Shown here in pieces: positions 8,458 through 46,084 of a stretch of 61,661 nucleotides of DNA. Below the pieces are notes generated by a model that was not told the DNA's origin, did no database searches, and was given only the letters and a program-made list of their open reading frames with translations. The translations under genes were made by a program, and so were the position numbers. The stretch comes from Bacillota bacterium (GTDB lineage: Bacteria > Bacillota > Clostridia > Saccharofermentanales > DTU023): contig DASRVY010000012.1 of assembly GCA_035654855.1 (NCBI GenBank), forward strand, positions 1 to 61,661, given 5' to 3'. Numbering within the stretch: the stretch's first letter is position 1; every line of letters starts with the position of its first letter.

Positions 8458-8473
8458 GGTCATTTTACTAAAA

Positions 8474-9724
8474 ATGATTAACAAAAACAGATCACTTACG
8501 ACAATTCTGCTGGGAATCATCAGTTTGCTCCTTTGTCTGGTCCTAGTCTGGGGATACAGAGCTCCCTTAATTGCGTCTTCCGACAAAACCTCTAAACAGC
8601 TGGAAGAAGCGCGCAAAAAAGCGGAAAGTCTGAAGAAGGAACTTAGTTTGGCCCAGGCAGAACTGGATGAATTACAAAGCGCAGCCAAAGAAAAATCTGA
8701 CAATCTGGCCTGGCTGGAAGAGCGCACGCAGGAACAGCGGGAAGCTTACGAGGATGCGTTGAACAGAAAAAACAACGCATTGTTGGTGATGGAGCAGACC
8801 AGCAGCGATTATGAAGAGGCTGTGCAAGAATTTGAGGATCAAAAAGAGGCCTATGGTGAGCGCCTTGCTCTGATGTATCAACTGCCGCAAGTATCTATCT
8901 TTGAAGCATTGTTGTCATCAGGAGATTTGCAGTCGTACTTTTCAACTAACAGATTAATTCGCATAATCAGTGACACCGATGAATTAATGCTGACCAGGCT
9001 GCAGGAAGCAGAAGCCTATGCCGAAGAGACGAAATCGCAGGCAGAAGCTAGTTATGAGGATATGCAAAAGCTTGTTGAGGAAGCTGATGAACTTCTGGCC
9101 GATATTAAGGCTAATATAAACATCTCAAAGGAAGAGCTTAGGAAAGCGGCGTCTGCTGTTACCGAGGCTGAAGAAGAATCATTATCGTGGGCGGCTGAAA
9201 TGAAAAAGGCTGAAGAAGAGATAGCCGCCTTGCAGGAAAAATATAAAAAGGAGCTCGCGGCTGAAGAAGCAGCTAAAAAGGAAGCGGCAAAAGCTGCCAA
9301 GAAAAAATCTGAATCCGGTACAACATCGGTCAGCAAATCCGGCTGGACCTGGCCGGTTCCTTCCAGCAGCAGGATATCTTCTAACTATGGTTACAGATAC
9401 ATTTTTGGCGCTAGACAATTTCATGCCGGTATCGATATTCCCGCGGCAATGGGAAATAAAATTGTCGCAGCCAAATCCGGAGTAGTGCTTAAGTGTTCCA
9501 GCAGTAAAAATGAAGGCAATTATGTGACCATTGATCATGGCGGCGGCATTATCAGTAAGTACAAGCATATGAGTAAATATGGCTGCAAGGCCGGTCAAAG
9601 AGTCAGTGCCGGTCAGGTTATTGGCTATATCGGTTCGACCGGAAGATCGACCGGCCCTCACCTGCATTTTGAAATTATTATTAATGGCAAAACTGTCAAT
9701 CCGCTTAAGTATGTAAGCCGTTAA
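8474..9724 (+). CDS. Coiled-coil M23 (LytM-type) peptidoglycan endopeptidase, probable FtsEX partner
   Basis: N-terminal TM, about 270 aa of coiled-coil-like E/K/A-rich sequence, then a C-terminal M23 domain. Metal ligands are intact: HAGID (HxxxD) and GPHLHFE (HxH). Confidence 0.85.
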   Translation: MINKNRSLTTILLGIISLLLCLVLVWGYRAPLIASSDKTSKQLEEARKKAESLKKELSLAQAELDELQSAAKEKSDNLAWLEERTQEQREAYEDALNRKNNALLVMEQTSSDYEEAVQEFEDQKEAYGERLALMYQLPQVSIFEALLSSGDLQSYFSTNRLIRIISDTDELMLTRLQEAEAYAEETKSQAEASYEDMQKLVEEADELLADIKANINISKEELRKAASAVTEAEEESLSWAAEMKKAEEEIAALQEKYKKELAAEEAAKKEAAKAAKKKSESGTTSVSKSGWTWPVPSSSRISSNYGYRYIFGARQFHAGIDIPAAMGNKIVAAKSGVVLKCSSSKNEGNYVTIDHGGGIISKYKHMSKYGCKAGQRVSAGQVIGYIGSTGRSTGPHLHFEIIINGKTVNPLKYVSR

Positions 9725-12185: not shown

Positions 12186-14657
12186 ATGAGGAGGAATATT
12201 TGCTTGAGAGAGAGAGCAAATAAATTTGTGCACCTTATAGCAGTGTGTGCAATAATTGCGATGCTGTTCTTTACTATGGCTTCTTGCAGTCATAGCAGTT
12301 TCCCGGATAAGATTATCTGCACTCGAGATGAGACCTCCTCCTATTCAGACGTCATCGCCGATATACTTCCGGATTATACTTTGATTAGAGATAAAGCTGA
12401 TGACGCTATGTTCTCGTATTTGAACAAAGGATATGAGACTGACACCTTCGATGTGCTGGCAGTCGGCGCGCTGGCAAACGGTGTCGCCAGCCAATGGTAT
12501 CCGCAGTATCTGGCTACCCCTGTCATAGCAATCGATCGCGAGCTTACAGATGTGAAAATTGACAGCTGGATGGATCTGTTGGCTGTTAAGGAAAATGTCG
12601 CTCTTTCTGAAGAGCAGCCGTATCAACAACTGATAATATCAGCTATTTCTTATGGCCTGGAAGGCGAAAATTTCAGTCTTGACAGCGCTATGGATTTGCT
12701 AAGATCACTCAGACAAAGTAGGCGTTTAACTTTAAACACGGTAACTGAGCCCATTGTCATCTGCTTTGACTATCAGGCGGCTGCGCTGATAAAAAGTGGA
12801 CGCATGCTGGAAATCGTTGTACCCCGGGAGGGCAGTTTAACTTTTGAGAAGGGTATTCTCTCAAACAAGGAGCTCAATTTTAGCGGAAATGAAAAAACAT
12901 CGCTGCTGGCTGCCGGTTTCCGTCTGCCGGACGGAAGCTGTGATCCCAATTTTTACCCCGGTGCAGATTATGAAAATACTTTTGAACTGGAAGATTACAG
13001 CCATCTTAGCAGTGTGAGTCAGGATATTGTGAGGGCTTTTCGACGCAGCGTTTTGTGGACACGCTTATACAGCTCTGCAGATAATCGTGAGCATCAATTG
13101 TTCCCCTTAATCTATATAGTGATTGTAGTTGTATGGCTGACATACATTGTAAGTCGCACCTTGCAAAATCAGGTGAAGACTATATTGCGCTTAATAGGGA
13201 TCGTTTTATTGGGCTGGATTATTGTCCGGCTGATAAAGTATCAACTGCCCTCGAGTTTATTAAATCGCTATCTCTGGTATGGTTTCTACATCTTCCAGCT
13301 AACCTTGCCCGTGTTACTGCTCTGGCTAGTCTGGCGGAGCGACAAGATGGCAGACCAGCCGATGTTTGTTAAGGGTCTGCAGGCCTTAGCACTCTTCAAC
13401 GGGATCCTAATCGTCTTCGTATTTACAAACGATCTGCATAATCTGGTTTTTCAACTAGACCTGAAAAACTCTGCCAACGCAGCTGATTATTCTTATGGCC
13501 CCGTTTTTTATCTAATCACAATAGTTTGGATTACAGAGCTGGCTATGGCGCTCATCACGCTTCTGGTCAAGAGCAATCAGTTACCGCGCAAGACTGCTTT
13601 AATTTTTCCGTTGATTTTTTGTCTGGTTTTGCTTGTCTATGCCATAGGTTATATTGCGCGTATTCCAATTTTTTGGTTCAGTGACTACACAATTGTCGTC
13701 GGCCTTTTAAGCCTCTTTTTTCTTGAAGCCAGCCTGCAAACGGGACTGGTTCAGGGTAATAGCAAATATTCCGATCTTTTTGTACACTCGCCTCTGAATA
13801 TGCAAATCATCAATAGAGAGGGGCAGCCGGTTCTGGCGTCCGCCAATGCTCCGAAATTCGATCTTGAATTGCAGCAGGCGGCTTTGGCGGCTTATCCCTC
13901 GGCAATACAAACAAAAGAGGACACGTTGTTGTTTTCCACCGAGATCAGAGGAGGCTATGCCCAGTGGCAGGAAGATATCAGCAGCTTAAATTATTTGCAT
14001 CGACAAATAGAAGAATCAGTGAAAAAACTTAAGCTGACTAACACTGTTTTAGAGAGAGAGGAAAAAATCCGCAGGGAACTGGACGAAGAGGATGTTCAGG
14101 TTCAACTTATGACTCAGCTCGAAGAACTCATAGCGGCGGATCTCTGGCGGCTGTCTTCGATGATAGAAGGGCTGGACAGTACAAGAGAAGAACCGGGAGA
14201 AAATGGCCGCATCGCCCTTCTGCTTTGTTATATTAAACGGCGCAGCAATCTTTTTTTCAGGAGGCAGGAATCAGAAGCTTTAGCAGCGGATGAACTGATA
14301 GTCTATATCGATGAATTGGCTGAAATTGCAAAGTACGCCGGTGTAAAAATTCTGGTCAACAGTGAGCTTAAAGATACTGTCCCTGTACGGCAGGCCTGTC
14401 TATTCTACGAATTATCCTACAAAGTAATTGACTGGGCAGCAAAAAATAAAAATCCACATATCATATTGCAGCTGCTCAGGGTAAAAGAACAGATCACGCT
14501 GCGACTCTTGTCATCGGAGGATCTTGGTTCATATGAACCGGAAGAAGAATTGAGATGTGCAATCGCTTTGGCTGATGGGGCTTACACTAATAAGGATCTG
14601 GATGGCGCGGTCGGCATTAGCCTCACTTTTTGGCAGAGAGGTAATCAGAATGTCTGA
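12186..14657 (+). CDS. Lipoprotein-anchored sensor-like membrane protein: extracytoplasmic domain, 7 TM segments and a degenerate HisKA_3/HATPase-like C-terminus
   Basis: Lipobox-like FTMASC after a hydrophobic N-terminus, about 290 aa of soluble region, then seven hydrophobic segments counted by eye. The C-terminal coiled coil aligns with the neighbouring kinase H-box (EREEKIRRELDEEDVQVQL vs EREMQKAKMRAHDVLGQRL) but has no His there, and I see no N/G boxes. The in-frame TTG at 12204 after AGGAGG is an alternative start. Confidence 0.6.
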   Translation: MRRNICLRERANKFVHLIAVCAIIAMLFFTMASCSHSSFPDKIICTRDETSSYSDVIADILPDYTLIRDKADDAMFSYLNKGYETDTFDVLAVGALANGVASQWYPQYLATPVIAIDRELTDVKIDSWMDLLAVKENVALSEEQPYQQLIISAISYGLEGENFSLDSAMDLLRSLRQSRRLTLNTVTEPIVICFDYQAAALIKSGRMLEIVVPREGSLTFEKGILSNKELNFSGNEKTSLLAAGFRLPDGSCDPNFYPGADYENTFELEDYSHLSSVSQDIVRAFRRSVLWTRLYSSADNREHQLFPLIYIVIVVVWLTYIVSRTLQNQVKTILRLIGIVLLGWIIVRLIKYQLPSSLLNRYLWYGFYIFQLTLPVLLLWLVWRSDKMADQPMFVKGLQALALFNGILIVFVFTNDLHNLVFQLDLKNSANAADYSYGPVFYLITIVWITELAMALITLLVKSNQLPRKTALIFPLIFCLVLLVYAIGYIARIPIFWFSDYTIVVGLLSLFFLEASLQTGLVQGNSKYSDLFVHSPLNMQIINREGQPVLASANAPKFDLELQQAALAAYPSAIQTKEDTLLFSTEIRGGYAQWQEDISSLNYLHRQIEESVKKLKLTNTVLEREEKIRRELDEEDVQVQLMTQLEELIAADLWRLSSMIEGLDSTREEPGENGRIALLLCYIKRRSNLFFRRQESEALAADELIVYIDELAEIAKYAGVKILVNSELKDTVPVRQACLFYELSYKVIDWAAKNKNPHIILQLLRVKEQITLRLLSSEDLGSYEPEEELRCAIALADGAYTNKDLDGAVGISLTFWQRGNQNV

Positions 14658-16086
14658 TTTTTATAGCTGGCCAAACTCAGTACGACAGATACTCACCGGG
14701 GTAATCGCGCTGGGTGTACTAAGTCAGACAATGCTAATAATTCTCAGTTATCGCAGATATCCACGCAACTTTAAGCGTGCGCTTGAAAGTCTTTTGGAAG
14801 TTCTCATGCTCTTAGGCTTAATTGTTTATTCCCTCATGCATGGGCAGGCAATTCATTCTTACTTCACCGGAATAATCGTTCCTCCGGGATATGAGGTGTT
14901 ACGCACAACAGCTTTTGCACTTATTGCGCTGACAGCGGGCGGGGTCGCAGTCTCGACAAAAAAACTCTGCCCATTTCTGTTGACGCTGCCTTTTCTTTTG
15001 CTGCTCCCCCCTATGGAGGGAATACTGGCAGACAGCTTCGCTTACCTCTTTTTCGTGTCAATTGTAATACTTCCGGTCCGCAGTGTTTATCTTTCTGTCT
15101 TGAGGTCAAGAGAGATTAGCAGCAGTATTTCTGCATTATCGATTAAGAATACAGTTGATTCTCTGCATACCGGGGTTCTATTTAGTGAGTTAGACGGTTT
15201 TATTTTGTTAATAAATAAGCAGATGCAACTGCTTATGAAAACTATTTTTGGACAGCTGTATCGCGATGGCAGACAGTTTTATGATCTTTTAGTGTCGGGT
15301 GAAGTCAAATTAGGATGTAAGAGAACCGAATTTGAAGGACAGATTGTCTTCCTTCTACCTGACAAGACAGCTTGGATGTTTACCAGCAGCAAAATTGAAA
15401 TCAAAGGCAAAAGTTACACCCAACTGGCAGCGACTGACATTACGCAGCAATGGATCATGACGGAAAAACTGCAAAGGCAGGAGAAAGAACTTACAATTAA
15501 GTCGAAGATGCTGAGAGAGTCGATCTCTAATCTGCAGATTCTTAGTCGGGAAAGAGAGATGCAAAAAGCAAAAATGCGCGCGCACGATGTTTTAGGTCAA
15601 AGGCTGTCTTTACTGCTGCGAAGTATTCGCAGTGATGAGAGGCTGGACCATGATTTGCTGCGCTCTCTGTCTCAAGGGATCCTTGAAGAGTTAAAAGAGG
15701 AAAAAACCGCACCGACTCCCAAAGATGAACTCGACGATTTGCAGCAGACTTTTAATGCGATCGGGATAAAAATTTCATTTAAGGGGGAGCTGCCTTCAGA
15801 TCCCAAAAAAGGCAGCATTATTACTGATATCATAAAAGAGAGTGTCACGAATGCAGTGCGACACGGTTTTGCCACGGAGATATCAATTGAAATAGGTGAT
15901 GTCGAAAATCGCCATTATTTGCTAATCTCAAATAACGGGGAGCTCCCTTCCCTGCCAATAATTGAGGGAGGAGGAATTGCAGCTATGAGAAAAATGGTGG
16001 AGCCCTATGGCGGGAATGTCGATGTAAGCGTAGATCCGCATTTTGCTCTGACTGTCTATGTCCCGGAGGTGAAGTATGAACTATAA
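14650..16086 (+). CDS. Multi-pass sensor histidine kinase, HisKA_3 (NarX/DesK-like) type
   Basis: H-box MRAHDVLGQRLS, N-box ESVTNAVRHGFA, G-boxes ISNNGELP and GGGIAAMRKMVEPYGG. The ATG at 14650 overlaps the upstream stop (ATGTCTGA) and follows GAGAGG. The track ORF begins earlier, at 14557. Confidence 0.85.
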   Translation: MSDFYSWPNSVRQILTGVIALGVLSQTMLIILSYRRYPRNFKRALESLLEVLMLLGLIVYSLMHGQAIHSYFTGIIVPPGYEVLRTTAFALIALTAGGVAVSTKKLCPFLLTLPFLLLLPPMEGILADSFAYLFFVSIVILPVRSVYLSVLRSREISSSISALSIKNTVDSLHTGVLFSELDGFILLINKQMQLLMKTIFGQLYRDGRQFYDLLVSGEVKLGCKRTEFEGQIVFLLPDKTAWMFTSSKIEIKGKSYTQLAATDITQQWIMTEKLQRQEKELTIKSKMLRESISNLQILSREREMQKAKMRAHDVLGQRLSLLLRSIRSDERLDHDLLRSLSQGILEELKEEKTAPTPKDELDDLQQTFNAIGIKISFKGELPSDPKKGSIITDIIKESVTNAVRHGFATEISIEIGDVENRHYLLISNNGELPSLPIIEGGGIAAMRKMVEPYGGNVDVSVDPHFALTVYVPEVKYEL

Positions 16087-23316: not shown

Positions 23317-23348
23317 GCTCCTCCTGAGTTTATCAGGAGGAGCTTTTT
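23317..23348 (+). terminator. Intrinsic terminator after the LysM protein gene
   Basis: GCTCCTCCT-loop-AGGAGGAGC followed by TTTTT. Confidence 0.75.
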
Positions 23349-23359
23349 GGAGGGAAATA

Positions 23360-25924
23360 TTAATCAAAGCTTTTAACGCACACAAGCGTTGTTCCATCCC
23401 GGTCAAAAACTGCTGTACCGAGTGATCTCAAAAATAACTCATTAGGGACCGGGGTCTCACTGTCATCGCTGTATAACGATCGTTCCAGCGCTCCGATGAC
23501 TATGTATTGCACTCTATACTTGCGCAGGATATCCTTGACCAAATCCCGGTCACAATCCTGATAGACTTGCCTGACCTCGCTGACACGCGGTCCTACTGTT
23601 GAGCTCCAGGCATCAGGATTGTCCTGAGTTTGCCGCCATAACCATTCATGTGTCGGCCAGCCGACGACGGTGGGCAAACCTGTAAAAGCCGAAACAAGAT
23701 TATAGTCAGAATAACTGACCGAGACTGCTTCAACTATAACCGGCTGCCCCTCAATATTCTCGTTAATCCAATCAATAAGCTCGAAATATGATCTTAGCTC
23801 GCCGCCGTTCTCACCGGAAATTTGAGGAGAATCTTTGCTCCGCAGAGGTACAGTGCCGTCCAGCGCCTGATAGTTTTCTTTGTTGAATTCTCCCAGCCAC
23901 TGTTCTGTCGCGGCAAACGGATACCAGAGCGGCACAATAATAAATATCGTCAATACAATGATTGCGATCTTAGCATGAATATTTCGAGGGAGCGTCAATA
24001 ATCTGGCCAAGCCCACGCCCCAAACGATCATAAGCAGGACGAAGGCTTGATAAGTGAATTTGAACATTGTATTTGAGCGCTGATAGGCTGCACCATATAT
24101 GTCTTGTACATAGATTATTTCCGGAATTAAAAGCAAAATAAGCGCAGCTGCAAGTAAAGACACTAACAGAACTCTCCCTGATCGCCATTCAGACAAATTC
24201 TGAGGCTCATTAACTTCAGCTTGACTGCTATTCTGATCCGGTTTGTCAGCAGTTCTTTTTCTTTTACGGCCGGATATGCTCTCAGTCAGCCACCAGATCA
24301 GTCCGGCGCAGATCATTACTCCCCACACAACCAAGAATTGATAAAGCGAAGTGTGTCGATCTGTCAGCTTTATTGTTTTGCTGATAGCGGAGAAATGGAG
24401 ATTGAAGGTCAGAGCCGGCAAATGCCCTAAAGCAAATATGCTTGTAGCTTTGCAGGCAGCATAACAGATGCGGTCTGCCGCCACAGCAAGTAACAGGTGA
24501 CTGACAAAAGTGCTGAGCAATAGCGCAAAAATCGTAAGCCAGGGAGATCGAAGAAGAAGGAAGGGTATAAGCACCAGCAAAATTTGAATGATTATGACCG
24601 GGACACCCTGCAAGCTAATTAAGGGCAGATCTGTGCCATGAGTACTCATCCAACTTAGCCATGCGATCAAGGCAAAATAGATAATGAAATCCCAATAATT
24701 AGTCATCATAAAAAAGGCCAAGATTGCAGATAAAAGCCAGATACGGTAGTCAAACACTGAAGTTTTTAACTCAGAGAGAGCAAGACTCAGCCTGACTCCT
24801 CTAACTCTTTCATCGCCTGCCATTTGCTGCAGCAGTTTTCTCTCCCAGTGTCTGGCTGTAATACTTAGCCAGCCGCTTTGCCAAAGAGCGACGAGGATGA
24901 TTAGCAGCCCCAGCACGCTGGCCAGATTAAGCAAATGTGCATGCAGATCTGCAACAAGGAAAGAATAATAGGGAAATTCATGAATGGTGAAATCTTCAAT
25001 AGGTGGATTATGACCGATATAGCGAGTAGAATCGGCAAACCAGAAGCTTCCTATTTCACCGGTCTCGGAAGGGAGCAACTGCGCGATTTTTTGTAATAAC
25101 GGAAAAGCCGGTGAGTCCGGATCGTACCAAAAGGAATGGCCATTACCGCCAAAACTGACTAACAAAGAGGCTAATCCCCCCGAGATCCAGGGAATACAGC
25201 GCTTTTTCTTCCGAAAATGAGGCTGCAGAATATTATATCCTAAAGAAAAACTCAAACATCCGGTTAATGCCATAGTTGTGGCTAAAGACAGATTGTAAGA
25301 AACTTGAGTTTGGATATTGCTGATCTTCATCATGACAGCAGCCAGGATATGACCGCCGTAATAGTAATTAATGGTGCCGCCTGCAAACCACATGTCTAGT
25401 GCCGGCAGGGTATCGCTGCGCCAAAGGCTGTTAATGAAACCGATATTCATCATCTTTTCAAGACTGCCCAGCTCAGGTTTCAGACCGCGTGCAAAAGTCC
25501 AGAGCAGGAGGAGCAAAGCGAAGATCAACTCTTCTGCAATAATAAGGTGAGGATTTATATCAGAGGAAAATCTTTTAACAAAATCCTTTTTCAGCTGCGG
25601 CAGTCCCCAGATCAAAATAGCAGCAGCAATAAAGAGAGCGATTAAAGATAATTGCGTAAAGGGTAAGATGCCTGAAGTGCAGAGCCCGCTTACAGCCAAA
25701 GTGATCAGCATTGGTCCCAAGATTTTTGCCAGGGCGAAACCTCCGTCCGGAGTGGGAATAAAGCGAGCTGCAAGAGGCCAAAAAATTAATCCGGATGTGG
25801 TCCAGATTAACCACCAGACTAAAAAATATGAAGCGTCAGACTCCAAACACAGCGGGGCAGCTAATGCAACTAAAAAGAGTGATATAGCCGGCAGCCATTG
25901 CCTTCTCTTTGTTACGTCTGTCAT
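23360..25924 (-). CDS. Large polytopic membrane protein, DUF2298 / 'Chlor_Arch_YYY' family (GT-C-like)
   Basis: 854 aa with many TM segments. The family's hallmark motif is present (FAGGTINYYYGGHILAAV), followed by a C-terminal soluble domain. The start overlaps the upstream stop as ATGA. Confidence 0.7.
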   Translation of the reverse strand: MTDVTKRRQWLPAISLFLVALAAPLCLESDASYFLVWWLIWTTSGLIFWPLAARFIPTPDGGFALAKILGPMLITLAVSGLCTSGILPFTQLSLIALFIAAAILIWGLPQLKKDFVKRFSSDINPHLIIAEELIFALLLLLWTFARGLKPELGSLEKMMNIGFINSLWRSDTLPALDMWFAGGTINYYYGGHILAAVMMKISNIQTQVSYNLSLATTMALTGCLSFSLGYNILQPHFRKKKRCIPWISGGLASLLVSFGGNGHSFWYDPDSPAFPLLQKIAQLLPSETGEIGSFWFADSTRYIGHNPPIEDFTIHEFPYYSFLVADLHAHLLNLASVLGLLIILVALWQSGWLSITARHWERKLLQQMAGDERVRGVRLSLALSELKTSVFDYRIWLLSAILAFFMMTNYWDFIIYFALIAWLSWMSTHGTDLPLISLQGVPVIIIQILLVLIPFLLLRSPWLTIFALLLSTFVSHLLLAVAADRICYAACKATSIFALGHLPALTFNLHFSAISKTIKLTDRHTSLYQFLVVWGVMICAGLIWWLTESISGRKRKRTADKPDQNSSQAEVNEPQNLSEWRSGRVLLVSLLAAALILLLIPEIIYVQDIYGAAYQRSNTMFKFTYQAFVLLMIVWGVGLARLLTLPRNIHAKIAIIVLTIFIIVPLWYPFAATEQWLGEFNKENYQALDGTVPLRSKDSPQISGENGGELRSYFELIDWINENIEGQPVIVEAVSVSYSDYNLVSAFTGLPTVVGWPTHEWLWRQTQDNPDAWSSTVGPRVSEVRQVYQDCDRDLVKDILRKYRVQYIVIGALERSLYSDDSETPVPNELFLRSLGTAVFDRDGTTLVCVKSFD

Positions 25925-27393
25925 TTATCTACTCCGACGGCGGCGGCTGCGACTTCTTTCGCCAGACGAACGGCATAGTTCATGCCGCGATCTTCAGGAT
26001 AGATTTGAGCCATTCCGGCCAGCCAGAGACCCGAAACAGGCGTCTTTATTGTTGGCATTTTCTCGCTGTAGCGGCGTTTAATTACCGGCTGAGAATATCT
26101 GGTGCGCACCAATCTGCTAAACAGTACTTTGTTGTCTGCTGCTCCTGGGAAAGCAACAGCTGCTGCCTGAATAAATTTATCTGTTATCTCCTGATCAGAT
26201 TCTCGCCAAAGCGCTTCCTCAGTTCCAATGTATCTGGAAAGGTAGACCAAATGGCCATCTTTTAATGAGCTTTTACTCAAATTGTCCTGCGCAACTGTCA
26301 CTACGAAGGGAAGATCATCGCAGATTGTTGTCCAATACCAGGGTGACAGCGGCTTCTCATAGATCACACTTAGGCACAGGTTCGCCTTATACTCTAAATC
26401 TGATAATTTCTCTCGATATTCAACGGAATCTATCAGGTCAGAAGCCAATTCTAAAAAAGGTTTTGCAGCGATAGTGCAGATGATTTGATCAAAAAATAAG
26501 GGATAAATCTCATCACCCGTTTTTATTTTGAATTGTGTTTTTTTGCTTAGTGATTCATAAGGCAGTATCTCGGTCACTTGACTGCAAGTATTGATCTGTC
26601 CGCCGTATGCAATAATTTTTGCTTCCAGTCTGTCGGCAATTTGCTGAAAACCGCCTTCAATATATCCCAGCTTCTCTTGGCTGCCCTTTCTGGAGCTGCC
26701 CCTGAGTTTGAACTTATTCCAAATCCAGACAGAGGAAATATCGGCGGCATCTGTTCCGAATTTTGAGTGTAAAAGAGGACGCCAGAGAATTTGCCAGGCT
26801 TTTTCACCGCAGTTCTTTTTTATCCAGTCAGAAGCGAGCTTGTTTTCCAAAGTTTGCCAGTTTTTCAGTCGGGAGGCTTTAAGCACAGAAATGCCTGTAC
26901 GAAGACGCTGAGAAAATGGTATCGGCTTAAAGCTTAATAAGTCCAGAGGGGTGGAGAAGGGATAAAATCTGTTCTCATACATGAGGGCGTTAGCGGCGGT
27001 TTCCCAGTGAAGACGGGATTTAAGATCAAGATCTTCCAACAATTGCAAAAGATAATTATCGCCGGTAAAGAGATGATGGTAGATATCATCAGTATAACCG
27101 GGGTCAAAGCTATCAGAGACAGAGCCTCTGGTTACAGTTTTGCTAGAGTCACGACCATTCGGATCATAATTACGGGAATCAGAACCGGCGGAGACGGAAT
27201 AACCAGGGTTAGAGAATTCTCTTACTCCCTTGATCATGCCGCCAATACGCGCTTCAGACTCAAAGAGGCGGACACAATAGCCCCTCTTGCTAAGTATGTA
27301 AGCAACAGTCAGTCCGGTGAGTCCGCCACCGATGATTGCGATTTTATCTTTATCTTCTTTTTTGGGCATATCCTTATTATTTGGCGGCGGCAT
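25921..27393 (-). CDS. FAD/NAD(P)-binding oxidoreductase, amine-oxidase / protoporphyrinogen-oxidase-like fold
   Basis: Dinucleotide-binding motif KIAIIGGGLTGLTVAYILSKRGYCVRLFESEARIGGM; the length and C-terminus (..LWLAGMAQIYPEDRGMNYAV..) fit the family. The start is ambiguous among ATGs at 27393, 27369 and 27435, and none has a good SD. Confidence 0.75.
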   Translation of the reverse strand: MPPPNNKDMPKKEDKDKIAIIGGGLTGLTVAYILSKRGYCVRLFESEARIGGMIKGVREFSNPGYSVSAGSDSRNYDPNGRDSSKTVTRGSVSDSFDPGYTDDIYHHLFTGDNYLLQLLEDLDLKSRLHWETAANALMYENRFYPFSTPLDLLSFKPIPFSQRLRTGISVLKASRLKNWQTLENKLASDWIKKNCGEKAWQILWRPLLHSKFGTDAADISSVWIWNKFKLRGSSRKGSQEKLGYIEGGFQQIADRLEAKIIAYGGQINTCSQVTEILPYESLSKKTQFKIKTGDEIYPLFFDQIICTIAAKPFLELASDLIDSVEYREKLSDLEYKANLCLSVIYEKPLSPWYWTTICDDLPFVVTVAQDNLSKSSLKDGHLVYLSRYIGTEEALWRESDQEITDKFIQAAAVAFPGAADNKVLFSRLVRTRYSQPVIKRRYSEKMPTIKTPVSGLWLAGMAQIYPEDRGMNYAVRLAKEVAAAAVGVDK

Positions 27394-27400
27394 TAGAATA

Positions 27401-29314
27401 TCAAGTTTTTTGCTGCCGCAGATAATATTCAGCATCAGGCAAGTTCTTCGCGGCCAGTGACAGCCTTTCTTCTATCGGGATAGGCCGGTCATACTCATCA
27501 ATTACGACTGACGCTCCACGCAGGGATTTGGTCTTGAATCCTCTGGCGTAACGAAATTCTTCCGCCTCATCCCAAAGATAAGGTACAGGCAGGTATCCTG
27601 CCATAAATATTTTATAAAAGCCTTCAGCAGAATAGAGGTCAGGGACCATTTGCTCAAGGGTGTTGATCATAGTCTCCGCATCATTATACAAAGACTTTTC
27701 TCTGGCCAAAACTTCTGTATTCATTGTCATGTCATCAATCATACCCTTATGTCTGGCCAGGCGATATTTTTTTAGTGTATGAAGTGTAATTTGAACACTC
27801 TCGTTAATGATGTCCGGTGTAGCAAGATGTGAAGCTTCGGAATAACTCACCACATGAATGATAGAAGGACAGGACATATCTGCAGGCTCGATATCGTCCA
27901 TCAGGCAGGTGACTGCCGCAAGTTGGGCTCTAGCCTCTTTAAGATCGGGTTTGAAATAGTCAAGGCCGGCGCGAGGCTGCAAAATAACTTTGAATTGACC
28001 GTCTTCCAGGCTGCGCAGCAATCGCAGCATAGCTCTGGATTTTGCCAAATCCTGAACGCCCCACGTGTTTCTCGGGGTGTTCAGCATATTTTGTAAAATG
28101 AAAGTCCTTATACCTAGCTGCTTGGCCAGTTTTGCGGCCAGATAGACGCTTACAATATAGGTGATATCATCTGAGCCGCGAAAAGCAAAGTGATGCGATA
28201 CATTGGCTTCAAAGGGTTTCCCGGCCGCGGCGACATAACGAATTGTTTTGATGTGTTCTTGCAGATTCGTATAAAGGTCGTATGGACCTCTGCCGTCCAG
28301 ATTGTTGAACCACCATAGTGACAGAGCGTGCCAGCAGATGTTTATGGAGTCCTCGTATATTTTTGCCAATTCAGGAATATTCTTTGTTCCGGCATAAGTT
28401 CTTAGCAGCATTGGCCGGGCTGCATCATATATGTAATGAAAATCGGCAATGGAGTTAATCGGTACTCCGCCGCCGTTTATTTTTCCCGTCCAGTCTTCGC
28501 CAAAATTTGACTGGCTCAGCTGTGAAGTCCCCAATGAGAGAATATCCAGCAGACCGGCCTGAGCCAACTGTTTGCACCAATCGCCGCATTCCTTTACTGC
28601 CTCGGGGAGCTTTTGCTCCGATATATATGGGCCCACATGAGCACGCATCAATGGCCTCTGACCAATAAAATCTGCACTGGAATTTTGCACAGCATTCAGT
28701 CGTTTGAGCAAAGAATCATTTTTGGTGCCGTACTCAGGGTAGCAAAAAGAAGCAACATTTTTTTCGCCCCAATATTCTGCCGAAGCAATTATATCCCTGC
28801 CAAATTGCAGGAGGGAGTCGTCGTATTTACCTACTTCCAAGATGGTTTTAGGGATGATGTCTGTGGGCACTTTCATCAATTCCAGTGTTTCTTTAACGGA
28901 TTCGCCTCCTTGGAAACAGATGAGAGGTCCTTTGAATTCCCTTTGGATGGACTGACATGTCCGGGGTAAACCGCCAAAAATGATAATTTCAACAGCTCCG
29001 CCCTGAAAAGACATCAGGCCGGAGTTTTTCAATTCTTCATAAAGATAACCAACCATATTGACAGCGTCTGCCTGATCCAGACGATAACTTAAACCGAGGC
29101 GGCTAATCTTTTCTGTTTTTATCCAGTCAATAATTTCCCGTCTGGCCGGTACTTCTCTGTAATGACTAAGCGCTCGCTGGACTTTGGGATTTGCGATTAC
29201 CACTCGATAACCGCACTCCCTAAGCAGCTCGGCTGCTGACTGCAGCCCCAATGTATGAGCGTCATTAGCAGGCTTGATAAAACCATAAACAGTACTGTGT
29301 AAAGAAGTAGTCAT
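27401..29314 (-). CDS. Protein with N-terminal cobalamin (B12)-binding domain (DxHxxG) fused to a roughly 480-aa uncharacterised, possibly TIM-barrel-like domain
   Basis: N-terminus VYGFIKPANDAHTLGLQSAAELLRECGYRVVIA matches the B12-binding Rossmann signature D-x-H-x-x-G. There is no CxxxCxxC radical-SAM motif anywhere. GGGAG SD 6 nt upstream. Confidence 0.55.
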   Translation of the reverse strand: MTTSLHSTVYGFIKPANDAHTLGLQSAAELLRECGYRVVIANPKVQRALSHYREVPARREIIDWIKTEKISRLGLSYRLDQADAVNMVGYLYEELKNSGLMSFQGGAVEIIIFGGLPRTCQSIQREFKGPLICFQGGESVKETLELMKVPTDIIPKTILEVGKYDDSLLQFGRDIIASAEYWGEKNVASFCYPEYGTKNDSLLKRLNAVQNSSADFIGQRPLMRAHVGPYISEQKLPEAVKECGDWCKQLAQAGLLDILSLGTSQLSQSNFGEDWTGKINGGGVPINSIADFHYIYDAARPMLLRTYAGTKNIPELAKIYEDSINICWHALSLWWFNNLDGRGPYDLYTNLQEHIKTIRYVAAAGKPFEANVSHHFAFRGSDDITYIVSVYLAAKLAKQLGIRTFILQNMLNTPRNTWGVQDLAKSRAMLRLLRSLEDGQFKVILQPRAGLDYFKPDLKEARAQLAAVTCLMDDIEPADMSCPSIIHVVSYSEASHLATPDIINESVQITLHTLKKYRLARHKGMIDDMTMNTEVLAREKSLYNDAETMINTLEQMVPDLYSAEGFYKIFMAGYLPVPYLWDEAEEFRYARGFKTKSLRGASVVIDEYDRPIPIEERLSLAAKNLPDAEYYLRQQKT

Positions 29315-29356
29315 AAAATGCTCCCGTTAAATTATCACGTCAGAGAAAATCAGAAA

Positions 29357-30451
29357 CTATCTTTCATTATTTTGTCTATCTTGCCTTAACAGAGCTGAAT
29401 ATACACTTTGCAAATTGATACCTTTCAGATTTCTGCCTGTAGCTCGGAAGTCTATCTGCAATAATTTGGAGGCAAGGTCAATAATCAATGAAGTATAAGA
29501 AGTATCGACACGCATCAAATTGCCGAGAGTTTCCAGAGTTACCAGACCATAGGGTACGTCTTCCAGTATGTATCGATGATGCAAGGTGCTAGGAGCGTCG
29601 ATGTCGTAATACACTTCTGTTCTGCTGACAACATCGTAAAGAGTTTCCGCTTCGGCAAAAGGAGTATGATAGCTGCGGTGGAACCAATCTTTAGTGCTTA
29701 AGACAATGTATCCCAGAGCTTCTGCCACTTCCAGGCGCTCTCGGTCAATCTCTTCGATGAAGGCACCGATATGTGGTGTGATGCTGTCTGTATAGTACTT
29801 GAAAGAAAAATCGGGATTTTCTGTCCAGCCGCTATTGAGCAACAGAGGTGTGCAATGCAAAATCATTCCTACATTGCCGATAGACGTCTGAATCATAGAA
29901 TCTGCCGGAGTAAAGTGGTCTCTCATAGGATAAGGAAGGCTGGCAACCAATTCGGAATTGCTCATTTTACCCAGCCCCGCCAAATAAACAGAATCCTTTA
30001 TGGCCATTACTTTAACCTTGTCCGGAGCCAGTTTGCGGCAAGTATGCATAACTGTTTGGGTTTCAGCGATCTCCGGAGTGATGGGATTATTTTGCAGGGA
30101 ATAATAGTGACTGAATTCAATTGCTCCACAGGTACGGCCGGGATTGAGTACAATGATGCAGTCTTTCTGCAGATGTCTGCCGAATAAGATAGCCAGGTCG
30201 CGATGAGCAATAGCAGGAGTTGCAATCAGGACTATATCCGGATTTGCCAGAGCTGCTTCAATATCGTCAGTTACCTCAGTTAGTTTGGCGTTTCCGCTGA
30301 TTCTCCCTGTTGCCTGAATAGTTTTTGTGTTTTTTAGTGTCGCAATATTCTCAGCAGACCTGTTCCATAAGGTGACGTCATTATTCGCGAGAGCTAAATG
30401 TGCCGCCATTGCCAAGCCTGAGTTTCCTGCGCCTATGACTGAAATCTTCAT
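29357..30451 (-). CDS. NAD(P)-dependent octopine/nopaline (opine) dehydrogenase-family protein
   Basis: N-terminal Rossmann MKISVIGAGNSGLAMAAHLA and C-terminal family motif HHRYILEDVPYGLVTLETLG. GAGGAA SD upstream. Confidence 0.7.
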   Translation of the reverse strand: MKISVIGAGNSGLAMAAHLALANNDVTLWNRSAENIATLKNTKTIQATGRISGNAKLTEVTDDIEAALANPDIVLIATPAIAHRDLAILFGRHLQKDCIIVLNPGRTCGAIEFSHYYSLQNNPITPEIAETQTVMHTCRKLAPDKVKVMAIKDSVYLAGLGKMSNSELVASLPYPMRDHFTPADSMIQTSIGNVGMILHCTPLLLNSGWTENPDFSFKYYTDSITPHIGAFIEEIDRERLEVAEALGYIVLSTKDWFHRSYHTPFAEAETLYDVVSRTEVYYDIDAPSTLHHRYILEDVPYGLVTLETLGNLMRVDTSYTSLIIDLASKLLQIDFRATGRNLKGINLQSVYSALLRQDRQNNER

Positions 30452-30589: not shown

Positions 30590-32366
30590 GAGGCATGTGC
30601 GATGTTCCCATTTTGAATACCGCACCTCATCGACCGGCAACAAGCGCTGCCAAGATTTAACCATATGAATGCGTTTTGCAGCACCTTGCTGCACCTAAAA
30701 GAGAAAAAATATCCACTCAACATGGGGAAAATCTGCACGTCAGACAGTTCCACTGAAAATGAGAAACCTTAATAAACTCTGGTCAATATCGTTATCAGCA
30801 TTCGTAAGATCAGGCAGGTATGCGAATCAAGCTCCGGTAGGTTGTTGAATCCGCTTTGCAAAGCAAATGTGCATACGCCAAAGCGTTCATGACAAGTAAA
30901 GCCAACGAACAGCGAAGCTGCATCTTCTTCATACCTCGGATCGTATGGTTCTCAAAGCCAAAAGAAACATTAAGGCGGCTGTTCACCCGTTCAACCGATG
31001 TTCGTTTGTTGTAAAGACGCTGCCAAACATGACTGTCACGAGGAATCCGCTGAAAGGCACGTGGATCGGTTTGTCGGGGAATGCGAAGACCATGGCGACA
31101 GGCACAAAGCGCCGCACCTTCACAGTAAAGGCCAATACGTACGGCTGTCGGACACGATTTGCGGATGCAATCGCGTGACGATTCATACCCGTTGTTTGGC
31201 ATCGTCCGTTCTTTCCCGGTCTTAGGGCAAGCACAAAACACTGCACCCTTTTCGTTGTACATCATGTTGTCGTAATGAAGCAGCGGTTTCTTGGCATCTC
31301 TCCATAAAAGACGCGTGTCAATGACCGCTTTTATGCCATCGTTAGCCAACATCTCAACAAACTTCTGGTTGTCATAACCTCGATCACCTTGAAGGGTCTT
31401 AGCCTGGCTATAGACGATGGGATGACAGGTTTTGTAATGCTCCAAGAGCACCGGAGCTTCGGCCATGTCATGCCGGTTGGCTTTGGTGACGGTATAGGCG
31501 ACAGGTAGTTCATGGTTGCTGTCGACGAGAAGATGGAGCTTGAAACCAAAAAAGGACATCGTCTTCTTCCAAAATGATCCGTCTTCACGCCGACCACTGT
31601 ATTCCTTTACTCCCCAATTGGCGTCATGTTCAGCTCTGGCTCCAGCCTTTCGTTTGTCGCGAAGCGAATTGGCATACGACTGAATATGTTTGCTGTCGAT
31701 GGCCAGGTCTTCACCAAACTGTGGGAGCATGGTCGAGAGCTTATCCACCATGGCGATAAACATGGCATCGATCTCATCCTGACAACCCATGAGGTTCTTT
31801 AAGAAACAGCTCATCGCAGAAGAGGGTGGAACCGTAAGGCTTGTCATACGACCACCAGAGACGACCAAGCGTAGCTGAGCATTACGAGCCAATTCTCGCT
31901 TTAAGCTTTCATACGTTGGATGTTGGAAGACAATACCAGCCAAAACGCAGTTCCACATTATAGCCACCGGGTACTTGTCACGGCCACGAGAACCTCGCTG
32001 TCGTTCAAGTCGCCCAATTAAGGTTTCATCTGGTAAAACCTCAAGTAACATCGAGAGGCGTTCCAGGTCACCATAATCACGCAGATCGATTTCGTAGTTG
32101 AAGAAGGTTTGTTGTGCTAAAATGGCCATGTAAAAGCGGTGCTCCTTTGGTCGGTTTTTTTGCAATTCCATTATGCCAATCGGATTGCCGCTTTTTCCTT
32201 TGTTTTCAAGCCTTTTCAGGCTTTTTTATATTTTGGGTGGACTTTTGTCATTTTCACCATCGATGATGCTCAAAACGTACGATCTACGTGAATTTCTGGG
32301 TGATGCAATTTTAAGTGTCTCTTGAAACAACTGTGGCTAAGGCATTAATGACATCGCACATGCCTC
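30590..32366 (-). mobile_element. Complete insertion sequence (IS4/IS5/IS1182-like DDE element), about 1.78 kb
   Basis: Perfect 16-bp terminal inverted repeats: GAGGCATGTGCGATGT (30590-30605) and its reverse complement (32351-32366). It carries a single transposase ORF and is flanked by the direct repeat ATCTTG. Confidence 0.85.
30810..32171 (-). CDS. DDE transposase (DUF772-like N-terminal domain plus DDE_Tnp_1-like catalytic domain)
   Basis: 453 aa. N-terminal ...GRDKYPVAIMWNCVLAGIVFQHPTYESLKRELARNAQLR and C-terminal YNKRTSVERVNSRLN (Y-R-E-K type signature). Confidence 0.9.
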   Translation of the reverse strand: MELQKNRPKEHRFYMAILAQQTFFNYEIDLRDYGDLERLSMLLEVLPDETLIGRLERQRGSRGRDKYPVAIMWNCVLAGIVFQHPTYESLKRELARNAQLRLVVSGGRMTSLTVPPSSAMSCFLKNLMGCQDEIDAMFIAMVDKLSTMLPQFGEDLAIDSKHIQSYANSLRDKRKAGARAEHDANWGVKEYSGRREDGSFWKKTMSFFGFKLHLLVDSNHELPVAYTVTKANRHDMAEAPVLLEHYKTCHPIVYSQAKTLQGDRGYDNQKFVEMLANDGIKAVIDTRLLWRDAKKPLLHYDNMMYNEKGAVFCACPKTGKERTMPNNGYESSRDCIRKSCPTAVRIGLYCEGAALCACRHGLRIPRQTDPRAFQRIPRDSHVWQRLYNKRTSVERVNSRLNVSFGFENHTIRGMKKMQLRCSLALLVMNALAYAHLLCKADSTTYRSLIRIPA

Positions 32367-44344: not shown

Positions 44345-46084
44345 ATGAATAAGTGGTGGATATTGACAAAAGCTTTGGTCAAAGGATCAGATGCCTTTGG
44401 CGCGGGAGCAAGAAAAAATAAGAAGAGAAGCACACTCATCTCAAAGGGACTGGATAAAAGCAAAAGAATATTCTTTGCCTTCCTGGCAATTGCTTATGTT
44501 TCAGTCATTTTTGGGATTCAAGGCTGGACGCTGGCAGAACAATTGCTGTCTATGGGACTACAAGTTCAAAACCCGGAGATCGAGCCTGTTATGTTGGCTG
44601 CTCTGCGTGCAGGCATAGGGCAGCTGTATCTGCCAGGTTTTTTTATGCTGCTGGGAACAGGCTTTTTCTATGCCGCAGGTATCTTTTATTTTGCCAAAGA
44701 TCTGGATACCTTGCTGGCCTTGCCGCTTAAGCCCGGTACAATTGTAGCCGCGAAAATTTCCAATCTTTATCTTTTCTCAATTATCATCCCTGCGGTATTG
44801 GCTCTGCCCGGAGTTGTTGTATTAGGCTTTAGATTGAGTATGCCGCCTTTGTATTATTTCTATGCGTTACTGCTCCTGCTCTTTGGCGCAATTATCCTCA
44901 TGTGCTTTGATGCTGTCGTGATTTTATTGATGATGCGTGTGTCTGTCTTTACCAGAAGTAAAGACCGTTTTATGGTAATAACTCAGATATTGATGTTTGT
45001 CGGCATCTTTGCCTACGTTATTTCTAATATGGGAGCTGCCGATATTGTGGGTCAGTCCGGTGAAGTAACTCCATCAATTGTCAGATATATCGTTCCTTTG
45101 TCCGATAAGGCTATCGAGGCGATGGCCTTACCGAGTGACCCTGCTTCGCCGCTTAAGATTATTGGCCTAATTGCCCTTGCTTTGGTTTTTATGGCTTTGC
45201 TGATCACATTGTCTTCGAGGATATATCTGCGGGCGGCGCGCGAGAGCAGATCCGGAGGGCGGTATGTTCATAAGCCCATGACTGAGAAGGGATGGAGAAA
45301 GCTGCAAAAGACCGGCAGCAATTTTGCCGTTATGGTCACTAGAGAGGTAAAGTCTTTAATTCGTTCTCCGGTCTATGCTTTAAATATTTTGATTTTTCCT
45401 GCCATTATGGTGGTTATTTTGACAGGCTCGATGCTGTTTGCCTTTATCGGGCAGGGCGGTAATCTTGGCGGTGTCAGAGAGCAGTTTTCACAACTGTTTG
45501 CTCCGGAAGGTTTGGACAGCGTTCTGCCTTATGTGCTAATAGGTGTGTGTGTCGGCATATCATTCCTGTCCGGCACTAACTACAGCATGACAACAGCTAT
45601 CTCCCGCGAGGGGAAAGAAGTGGCAAATCTAAAATCTTGGCCGCTTAAAACAAGTACAGTATTTGCCTCTAAACTGGTTATAGGTGAGCTCATATCACTT
45701 ATTTCCTGGCTGCCGATAATGGTAATGATTTATATTCTGGTCCCTTTTAACGTCTATTTCCATCCGGTTGTGACGATAATGCTGTTGTTCTTGCCTGCCA
45801 CAGTTAATGTAATGTCATTGTTGGTCGATCTTAGCAAACCTATTCTGAGCTGGAGCTCGGAGCAACATGTTGTCAAGCAGAATATGAACATTCTTAAGGC
45901 TATGCTCATTGCTGTCATCCAAGCAGGTATACTCATTGGCGCATCCCTTCTGGCGCGAAGGGTTGGAGCAGGAATCGCAGTCTCTTGTTTTATTTTTGCT
46001 GCAGGCAGCATACTGCTCTTCGCACTCTCTGCAATATTATTGGCTTCAACAGGCAAGCGGTATTATTTGGAACGGGTATACTAA
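44345..46084 (+). CDS. Large polytopic ABC-exporter-type permease (putative 'ABC_export'-like)
   Basis: 579 aa with more than 10 hydrophobic segments. It starts 3 nt after the ATPase gene stop. I recognise no catalytic motifs. Confidence 0.6.
   Translation: MNKWWILTKALVKGSDAFGAGARKNKKRSTLISKGLDKSKRIFFAFLAIAYVSVIFGIQGWTLAEQLLSMGLQVQNPEIEPVMLAALRAGIGQLYLPGFFMLLGTGFFYAAGIFYFAKDLDTLLALPLKPGTIVAAKISNLYLFSIIIPAVLALPGVVVLGFRLSMPPLYYFYALLLLLFGAIILMCFDAVVILLMMRVSVFTRSKDRFMVITQILMFVGIFAYVISNMGAADIVGQSGEVTPSIVRYIVPLSDKAIEAMALPSDPASPLKIIGLIALALVFMALLITLSSRIYLRAARESRSGGRYVHKPMTEKGWRKLQKTGSNFAVMVTREVKSLIRSPVYALNILIFPAIMVVILTGSMLFAFIGQGGNLGGVREQFSQLFAPEGLDSVLPYVLIGVCVGISFLSGTNYSMTTAISREGKEVANLKSWPLKTSTVFASKLVIGELISLISWLPIMVMIYILVPFNVYFHPVVTIMLLFLPATVNVMSLLVDLSKPILSWSSEQHVVKQNMNILKAMLIAVIQAGILIGASLLARRVGAGIAVSCFIFAAGSILLFALSAILLASTGKRYYLERVY

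Follow-up and report, generated by a model that had tools for sequence, protein, structure and literature searches.

Two gene pairs, one encoding a diverged glutamate-mutase relative, probably joined as a composite operon in a Saccharofermentanales clade

The window analyzed here, a 61.6-kb stretch of DNA (positions 1 to 61,661 of contig DASRVY010000012.1, Bacillota bacterium assembly GCA_035654855.1), carries four adjacent minus-strand genes, A to D, that encode a predicted opine dehydrogenase, a B12-binding protein, a flavoprotein and a DUF2298 membrane protein. An earlier reading made from the letters alone, hereafter the sequence-only reading, had taken the four genes as one undescribed system. 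We find that A-B and C-D are each conserved on their own, and consider it probable, at roughly seven chances in ten, that the locus is a composite operon in which a single strong promoter has come to serve two modules of two genes each, both conserved independently, in one uncultured clade of Saccharofermentanales. The genes and their promoter are as follows (nt, nucleotides; aa, amino acids; FAD, flavin adenine dinucleotide; GT-C, glycosyltransferase of the C fold).

29357..30451, minus strand: gene A, predicted NAD(P)-dependent opine dehydrogenase of the CENDH type (Octopine_DH, PF02317), 364 aa
27401..29314, minus strand: gene B, predicted adenosylcobalamin-dependent carbon-skeleton mutase, a fused B12 domain and TIM barrel, 637 aa
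25921..27369, minus strand: gene C, predicted cytoplasmic FAD-dependent oxidoreductase with an amine-oxidase/phytoene-desaturase fold, PRK07233 family, 482 aa
23360..25924, minus strand: gene D, DUF2298/Chlor_Arch_YYY membrane protein with a predicted GT-C fold and a C-terminal extracytoplasmic domain, 854 aa
30545..30574, minus strand: putative sigma-70-type promoter, TTGACA-18-TATAAT, matching 12 of 12 consensus positions, ~94 nt upstream of the gene A start

An open reading frame (ORF) check of the window recovered all four as long minus-strand frames at these coordinates, in the operon-like layout that the sequence-only reading had described, and its four family calls hold up, each of the motifs behind them being found: RYILEDVPYGLV in A, NDAHTLG in B, IAIIGGGLTGL...ESEARIGG in C and INYYYGGH in D. 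The A-B junction of 42 nt, which carries a GGGAG ribosome-binding site, and the ATGA overlap (-4 nt) between C and D are as it gave them. Its remaining spacer, about 7 nt between B and C, requires C to begin at ATG 27393; the N-termini of homologues align better with ATG 27369, which leaves 31 nt (the first ATG, at 27435, would give 504 aa). The promoter, described there as near-consensus, is the sole perfect match to TTGACA-18-TATAAT across the window, where 0.02 would be expected by chance, and both hexamers and most of the 5′ untranslated region (UTR) are kept in two relatives (L006 and L009). An Rfam search of the 5′ UTR of A for a riboswitch matched no family. None of the terminator-like sites in the window (8 in total, compared with 7.3 expected from shuffling) falls in the three junctions. 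Judged from these sequence features, A to D are probably co-transcribed.

Two gene pairs and the clade that joins them

We compared gene neighborhoods in two surveys. The survey of B covered 80 metagenome loci which, with earlier ones, make 89, and 74 of these have at least 1.3 kb of upstream DNA; the survey of D covered 80 DUF2298 loci from GTDB genomes, searched by tblastn with A to D, of which 74 have enough upstream DNA. In 65–66 of the 74 B loci with enough upstream DNA, the gene directly upstream of B on the same strand is A, and A adjoins B without C or D in Pseudothermotoga thermarum, in Acidaminobacter and in another Saccharofermentanales metagenome-assembled genome. A C-family gene lies directly upstream of D in 28–36 of the 80 D loci and is the commonest immediate upstream neighbor of D in Saccharofermentanales and Oscillospiraceae. 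It stands there without A or B in L013–L020 and L062, with C 40–44% identical, and many further loci have a more distant C-like gene upstream of D that is a true homologue (BLASTP E 4e-16; NF005560, 157 bits).

The two pairs meet in one place only. C and D are present at five of the 74 B loci, all in the window's clade, among them L100 (LSQX01120908.1), whose B is 100% identical to that of the window. Conversely, A and B were found only in the five of the 80 D loci where D is at least 62% identical (L009–L012, L034), so that the quartet accounts for 5 of the 74 D loci with enough upstream DNA and A is absent from the other 69. Outside the clade, A-B never occurs with C-D in the sampled loci, nor C-D with A-B, and all loci with the four genes are confined to the window's own shallow clade of Saccharofermentanales. 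The slot that runs from alaS to the LysM gene reads alaS< DUF1015> C> D> in sister clades, with a DUF1015 gene at 24 loci, and in the window's clade A> B> holds the DUF1015 position. On the simplest reading, A-B entered in a single lineage, either by insertion ahead of a C-D unit already in place or as a replacement for DUF1015. The DUF1015>C>D triad recurs in L013–L018, L020, L022, L023, L026 and others, with a DUF1015 protein of about 435 aa and a LysM gene usually downstream; the DUF1015 protein has no PDB or NCBIfam match, and the window itself has no DUF1015 gene.

Since A-B and C-D are each conserved alone, and are found together only in one clade, we take the quartet to be a juxtaposition of independent modules. 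The claim that the four genes form one undescribed system is thus not supported. The sequence-only reading had named a lack of co-occurrence in other genomes as what would refute it, and this largely applies: outside the window's clade the genes part and the pairs are conserved separately.

Some observations pull the other way and would suit a different account, in which the four genes form one envelope-modification pathway in this clade and an amino or imino acid from A-B ends on the C-D glycan. The three closest relatives (B 82%, 68% and 65% identical) keep the whole quartet, which is present in L006–L012, L034 and L101. It persists in no fewer than five genomes of species rank, among which the identity of D falls as low as 62%. 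In the window it stands behind one perfect promoter, with tight spacing (42 nt, 7–31 nt, -4 nt) and with no intergenic terminator. A clade-specific functional link is made more conceivable by the glycan-related contexts that both modules have elsewhere, A-B often lying inside glycan clusters and D being a GT-C glycosyltransferase by predicted fold. But synteny in the three closest relatives extends to the flanking genes, alaS at one end and LysM, ispD and radA at the other, so that conservation of the quartet within the clade may be simple inheritance. The modules are never together outside the clade, and sister clades have DUF1015 at the A-B position. The quartet, moreover, contains no ligase or sugar aminotransferase to link an amino-acid product to a sugar, and a promoter-like site stands ahead of C:

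27376..27404, minus strand: weaker promoter-like site, TTGATA-17-AATAAT, matching 10 of 12 consensus positions and overlapping the stop codon of B

This site ends 6 nt before ATG 27369 of C and could be a putative internal promoter for C-D. (Its spacing to that ATG is possibly compatible with a leaderless C-D transcript.) A single pathway is, in our judgment, unlikely. On the composite-operon reading, the four-gene 'system' is a clade-specific juxtaposition and is not to be pursued as one pathway.

The operon is bounded by two further features.

30590..32366, minus strand: insertion sequence (IS) with a DDE_Tnp_1 transposase (Pfam E 5e-17) and perfect 16-nt terminal inverted repeats
23317..23343, no strand assigned: 11-bp GC-rich hairpin, GCTCCTCCTGA-TAAAC-TCAGGAGGAGC, lying where D and the LysM gene converge, between their stop codons

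The IS lies in the alaS-A intergenic region, with its inverted repeats at 30590–30605 and 32351–32366 and a transposase ORF of 453 aa at 30810–32171 on the minus strand; its end sits 15 nt upstream of the operon's -35 box. It bounds the operon and does not belong to it. We considered whether the promoter is part of this element and rejected the idea, because the promoter is conserved in L006 and L009, which carry unrelated sequence at the IS position. At the other end, the hairpin has a T-run on its plus-strand side and, as read from the sequence, marks the 3′ end of the transcription unit.

The window as a whole is an ordinary chromosomal region (fhs, ftsEX, radA, ispD, alaS, recJ, relA, rnj, ruvB) with even GC content. 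Three of its ORFs have no Pfam match at E 1e-8: 12186–14657 (823 aa), 14557–16086 (509 aa) and 44345–46084 (579 aa), the last of which comes after an ATP-binding cassette (ABC) ATPase gene. In one relative with the quartet (L008, 407–8605), three large genes (515, 1023 and 1123 aa) with no Pfam matches on record lie between alaS and A.

Gene B and its opine dehydrogenase partner

Gene B encodes a MutS-like cobalamin domain (residues ~1–150), predicted to be of the base-off/His-on type, a MutE-like TIM barrel (~220–490) and then C-terminal helices. Its B12-binding domain reaches Pfam PF02310 only below threshold (E 9e-4, 19.5 bits against a 32.1-bit cut-off), B has no NCBIfam match, and a direct search of its sequence against the PDB returned noise only. 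A profile of the B family matches nothing but solved B12 domains: 4jgi (E 2.6e-5), the 2yxb mutase domain (E 7e-4), MetH and the HcmB small subunit. The NDAHTLG motif, D18-A-H20-T-L-G23, is the DxHxxG motif of B; D18, H20 and G23 do not vary among 34 homologues, nor does G115 in the pair G114-G115, and H20 and G23 are at least 90% conserved in a divergent set of 33 B-family sequences.

The AlphaFold2 model of B (mean predicted local distance difference test score, pLDDT, 79; predicted template modeling score, pTM, 0.83) has an eight-stranded barrel between residues ~222 and ~487. The top PDB folds found for it by Foldseek are the glutamate mutase E chains 1cb7_B (E 6e-10) and 6h9e_B (E 1.4e-9), with a template modeling (TM) score of 0.62 normalized to the target over ~497 columns that cover the whole 483-residue chain, and the E chain beats the next TIM-barrel class by five orders of magnitude. 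Structural comparison, which the sequence-only reading had suggested for all four proteins, thus leads to glutamate mutase E chains for B and to GT-C enzymes for D (below), and the B12 protein that it had left unexplained is now placed as a fused glutamate-mutase relative. The relationship is also visible at the sequence level. In hhalign, the B family aligned with an alignment of canonical MutE sequences from E. coli O157:H7 and plasmids at a probability of 95.2% (E 2.9e-8, B 385–617 with MutE 227–442); this link emerges because a multi-sequence MutE alignment was used, single MutE or MutS sequences being too weak (18% and 8%, respectively). A correspondence between B and MutE through NGGGVP/EGGGIS was rejected, as strand order is broken. 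Invariant Arg, His, Gln and Asn residues of B cluster at the C-terminal ends of predicted strands (examples are R224/H226, S264/Q265/Q268, R305, H329, E369/H374/H375, Q408-P414, Q446-P-R448 and H487), placed in the model as would be expected for a polar active site facing the corrin.

The family is large, with more than 2,800 B homologues and identities of ~60% across Clostridia, Tissierellia, Erysipelotrichia and Thermotogae. A search for distant homologues among 1.8 billion representative sequences found full-length relatives down to 24–28% identity, and other proteins that share only residues ~220–620. Among the distant homologues, P0277 and P0282 have Pfam Met_asp_mut_E matches (P0277 alone reaches the PF06368 threshold, with 27.5 bits against 26.6), and P0308, P0341 and P0320 carry C-terminal fusions to MutL, the glutamate-mutase reactivase. 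P0277 also carries an ATP-grasp domain fusion.

Some points weigh against a close tie to glutamate mutase. The N-terminal half of the B barrel aligns weakly to MutE (E 0.015). In that weak alignment R224 of B pairs with Arg66 of MutE and Q268 pairs with Arg100, two members of the arginine claw (Arg66, Arg100 and Arg149, with Glu171) that we take to be the substrate-binding residues of the Clostridium cochlearium enzyme; by this alignment the claw is probably altered in B, and the change of Arg100 to Gln would make plain glutamate an unlikely substrate. B itself has no PF06368 (Met_asp_mut_E) match at E < 0.01, and we saw no MutL-type reactivase or adenosyltransferase adjoining it. Because it has neither the PF06368 match nor a MutL or methylaspartate ammonia-lyase neighbor, and its claw is probably altered, we place B as a fused, highly diverged member of the glutamate-mutase superfamily, outside the glutamate mutase family proper.

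We also weighed whether B might be a corrinoid-dependent methyltransferase or a cobalamin sensor. Its N-terminal domain matches corrinoid proteins and MetH besides mutase small subunits, and BHMT and MetH-type TIM barrels are among the weaker fold matches (E ~1e-4). The margin of five orders of magnitude by which the E chain leads, over its full 483 residues, speaks against this, as do the 95% profile-profile match to MutE and the family members with MutL fusions and Met_asp_mut_E matches; nor do methyltransferase partner genes recur near B. A methyltransferase or sensor thus seems very improbable.

The partner of B is more readily classified. A matches Octopine_DH with 141.7 bits (PF02317; cut-off 30 bits, E 2.4e-41), residues 1–102 give several Pfam NAD-binding domain matches, and in phmmer the protein aligns full-length with N-(1-D-carboxyethyl)-L-norvaline dehydrogenase (CENDH; 1bg6, E 3.9e-56). 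H199, R293 and D298 of A pair with H202, R292 and D297 of 1bg6, which we take to be the catalytic residues of CENDH. By sequence, then, A is predicted to be an opine dehydrogenase of the CENDH type that retains the catalytic His, Arg and Asp.

The pairing of A and B has been noted before. Zhang, Rodionov, Gelfand and Gladyshev (2009; PMC2667541) predicted a new family of B12-dependent proteins with a distant N-terminal B12-binding domain, always adjacent to a pfam02317 octopine/nopaline dehydrogenase, with genes for D-Ala:D-Ala ligase and asparagine synthase close by, and represented in Clostridia, Thermotogae and other phyla. Judged by this description, it appears to be the B family, so the A-B association itself is not new. 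A literature search returned no follow-up on the function of that family.

Beyond A, clustering of neighboring ORFs found no gene family that recurs in more than 13 of the 89 B loci. The neighbors that recur are carboxylate-amine ligases and sugar-modifying enzymes: A-B lies beside ATP-grasp or AsnB ligases in ~17 loci, often within glycan clusters, and a count over A-B loci gave 14 with an ATP-grasp gene and 13 with glycan genes. In 10 loci the gene directly upstream of A encodes an ATP-grasp protein (PylC is second among its NCBIfam matches, at 75 bits, far under the 248-bit cut-off), a D-Ala-D-Ala-ligase-like (Ddl-like ATP-grasp) gene occurs in four, including between A and B in P. thermarum, and an AsnB-type asparagine synthase sits between A and B in L158 and L174. 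Co-directional neighbors of the glycan type include a DegT aminotransferase, a Polysacc_synt_2 dehydratase (CapD/PglF type), a Bac_transf initiating transferase, a glycosyltransferase family 1 (GT1) gene, a FemAB-like gene and a Wzx-like flippase (L111, L113, L116, L141, L145, L154/155, L160, L162, L171, L173, L177, L179). A link to transport was rejected, as the recurring ABC genes belong to efflux sets of the MacB/FtsX/HlyD type and are not amino-acid importers.

From these families and contexts we infer both the substrates and the direction of the A-B chemistry. B would use adenosylcobalamin for a radical 1,2 carbon-skeleton shift. Its substrate would be a dicarboxylic amino or imino acid that resembles glutamate or 3-methylaspartate and, in view of the many basic residues and the probably altered claw, is possibly N-substituted. 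A would use NAD(P)H to join a 2-oxo acid to the nitrogen of an amino acid, or in the reverse direction would split the two. Acting together, A and B would form or break down a methyl-branched diacid of the opine-like kind. Where a ligase is present, it would join a carboxylate of this product to an amine, in glycan clusters most likely that of a 4-amino sugar; in genomes with both a ligase and modified-amino-sugar clusters, the A-B product is probably attached to a cell-surface glycan. Against a general role of this kind, most A-B loci have no ligase or glycan gene nearby, and ~8 loci have B without A; glycan decoration may therefore hold for a subset of loci only.

The pair could instead be catabolic, by analogy with the methylaspartate pathway, and degrade an opine-like or glutamate-like compound in amino-acid fermentation: A would release a 2-oxo acid and an amino acid, and B would rearrange the skeleton. 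The lack of biosynthetic neighbors at most A-B loci would fit, as would hosts that include amino-acid fermenters (Acidaminobacter, Tissierellia, Anaerosalibacter), and in Acidaminobacter the pair adjoins a sigma-54 activator, a BCCT transporter, an aromatic ammonia-lyase and a beta-eliminating lyase. But no methylaspartate ammonia-lyase, mesaconase or dedicated importer recurs beside the pair, the partners that do recur are ligases and sugar-modifying enzymes, and one family member is fused to an ATP-grasp domain. We hold catabolism to be a possible but less favored role. A further proposal combines the biosynthetic role of A-B with the arrangement in the window: A-B, with an ATP-grasp or AsnB ligase where present, would be an undescribed, adenosylcobalamin-dependent route to a methyl-branched opine-like amino diacid, a substituent of cell-surface glycans, and the route would be functionally coupled here to the DUF2298 transferase. 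If so, the operon would be one envelope-decoration system with a B12-dependent step, but we think this coupling quite unlikely.

Two sets of loci deserve separate mention. In one group of metagenome loci (L106, L107, L110 and L112, and the truncated L163 with B only), a CYTH-domain gene follows A-B and faces genes for a RuBisCO-like protein and a conserved 210-aa protein, the latter presumably a HAD-family hydrolase as read from its sequence. In L097 (GCA_040772725.1), B is preceded, with a 4-nt overlap, by a gene for a 345-aa protein (7967–9004) that neither matches Pfam nor resembles A; a DUF2298 homologue, P0176, is encoded on this 1.38-Mb contig too, more than 9 kb from B.

We consider B the main point of interest of the locus, as a member of a large, strongly conserved family that was flagged in 2009 as a possible new B12 enzyme and whose function is still absent from the literature searched. 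The more valuable result is the assignment of this orphan B12 family to the glutamate-mutase fold, along with the ligase and glycan settings in which it occurs. The fold narrows the predicted chemistry to a radical 1,2 carbon-skeleton shift, and the near-obligatory opine dehydrogenase partner, the recurrent ligase neighbors with one ligase fusion and the frequent position in glycan clusters suggest concrete substrates and assays.

The DUF2298 protein and its partners

Gene D is a clear member of its family (Pfam DUF2298, PF10060, 302.5 bits, E 8e-90; NCBIfam TIGR03662 Chlor_Arch_YYY, 404.9 bits against a cut-off of 300.25). Within its INYYYGGH motif, N186-Y-Y-Y-x-G191 is invariant across 54 sequences; DLHAH, NYWDF and RxNTMFK are further invariant signatures of the family, and D30, near the first helix, is at least 90% conserved. 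The sequence-only reading had called such proteins GT-C-like, and the AlphaFold2 model (pLDDT 88.9, pTM 0.92) bears this out at the level of fold: GT-C enzymes make up all nine of its best PDB matches (probability 1.00, E 5e-6 to 1e-3), namely DPY19 (7zlh), STT3 (in three oligosaccharyltransferase structures), AglB and AftA, and its C-terminal globular domain resembles the C-terminal domain of AglB (3vu0). By its modeled fold, then, D is a GT-C glycosyltransferase, which would take a sugar from its polyprenyl-phosphate carrier and pass it to an acceptor of the envelope, outside the membrane. Literature searches on the function of DUF2298/YYY proteins returned nothing relevant.

The flavoprotein C matches Pfam Amino_oxidase (73.6 bits) and NAD_binding_8, and NCBIfam NF005560/PRK07233 ('hypothetical protein') with 397.7 bits against a cut-off of 252. 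Its position upstream of D, taken with the sugar-donor genes that precede D in Lachnospiraceae (below), suggests that this cytoplasmic enzyme would prepare or modify the donor for D, be it a sugar nucleotide or a lipid-linked sugar. UDP-galactopyranose mutase was considered as an identity for C and rejected: C has no Pfam match to GLF (PF03275), and its BLASTP alignment to a genuine GLF neighboring D is confined to the N-terminal FAD motif (E 0.001). C also has a Ser/Asp/Gly-rich insertion right after the FAD-binding motif (residues ~70–118, window ~27120–27230); a comparable one is present in L006 and none in the 441–444-aa homologues of L007 and L008.

The sequence-only reading had also drawn an analogy between A and C and the oxidation and reduction of a lipid-linked sugar by DprE1 and DprE2. 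This does not hold up, as C has the amine-oxidase/NAD_binding_8 fold and not that of the VAO family, A is Octopine_DH/6PGDH-like and not a short-chain dehydrogenase/reductase, and A, missing from all but five of the 74 D loci, is never kept with C-D outside the window's clade.

In Lachnospiraceae, D has other partners. In 18 loci the gene directly upstream of D is a small glycosyltransferase family 2 (GT2) gene, and in 11 a genuine UDP-galactopyranose mutase gene lies within 6 kb, which ties D to the supply of a sugar donor. A GT2 gene preceding a GT-C enzyme is the arrangement of three-component glycosylation systems, to which we liken these loci. In L042, L050, L052, L054, L059, L066, L067, L069, L076 and L082, UDP-galactopyranose mutase and one or two small GT2s precede DUF2298, and about half of these loci (e.g., L059, L066, L067) add a 670-aa protein without a Pfam or NCBIfam match. 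The Lachnospiraceae contexts suggest a glycosylation system linked to galactofuranose. The predicted GT-C fold and the alternative partners of DUF2298, PRK07233 flavoprotein in some lineages and GT2 with UDP-galactopyranose mutase in Lachnospiraceae, offer an entry to an uncharacterized family of envelope glycosyltransferases.

Comparison with known systems

Literature searches found no described pathway that combines the four genes, in agreement with the sequence-only reading; we compare the two modules with known systems separately. With the GT-C glycosyltransferases STT3/AglB/PglB, DPY19 and AftA, D shares the predicted fold and an AglB-like C-terminal globular domain; its TM-scores to them are modest (0.30–0.49, at ~10% identity), and it has motifs of its own (NYYYxG, DLHAH, NYWDF). 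To our knowledge, none of these families has a flavoprotein partner.

A has the same two-domain layout as the CENDH of Arthrobacter (1bg6), with a full-length match and aligned His, Arg and Asp. It differs from CENDH and other opine dehydrogenases in its conserved pairing with a B12 enzyme, and we know of no characterized opine dehydrogenase with such a partner.

The logic of A-B with a ligase may be likened to that of the pyrrolysine pathway (PylB/PylC/PylD), whose three enzymes are a mutase yielding a methyl-branched amino acid, a ligase of the ATP-grasp type and a dehydrogenase that depends on NAD. The parallel is an analogy of logic only: PylB is a radical-SAM enzyme and not a B12 enzyme, PylD is not an opine dehydrogenase, and no pyl genes are involved.

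For the B12 family predicted in 2009 (PMC2667541), our neighborhood survey, made before we found the paper, reproduces the pairing independently. That paper gives no link to MutE or the glutamate mutase fold, no function, no glycan-cluster contexts and no DUF2298 adjacency.

The closest known relative of B is glutamate mutase (MutS/MutE, also GlmS/GlmE; EC 5.4.99.1), with which it shares the DxHxxG Rossmann domain and the TIM-barrel catalytic domain. Literature searches on glutamate mutase with opine dehydrogenase or ATP-grasp, and on methylaspartate in polysaccharides, returned nothing relevant. Further non-canonical glutamate mutase relatives are found on plasmids, where they sit with ligases: triads of a cobalamin-dependent protein, a methylaspartate mutase and asparagine synthetase A in Streptomyces (L094, L095), and a fused 664-aa 'methylaspartate mutase subunit E' that adjoins an amino-acid racemase in Roseibium (L092). 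In glutamate mutase proper, S and E are separate, whereas B is a single chain with its B12 domain at the N-terminus and only ~12% identity to the E chain 1cb7_B in the fold alignment. The canonical operon of S, E, MutL and methylaspartate ammonia-lyase is seen in E. coli O157 and on plasmids, but neither MutL nor methylaspartate ammonia-lyase recurs among the 89 B neighborhoods, where the partner of B is instead an opine dehydrogenase.

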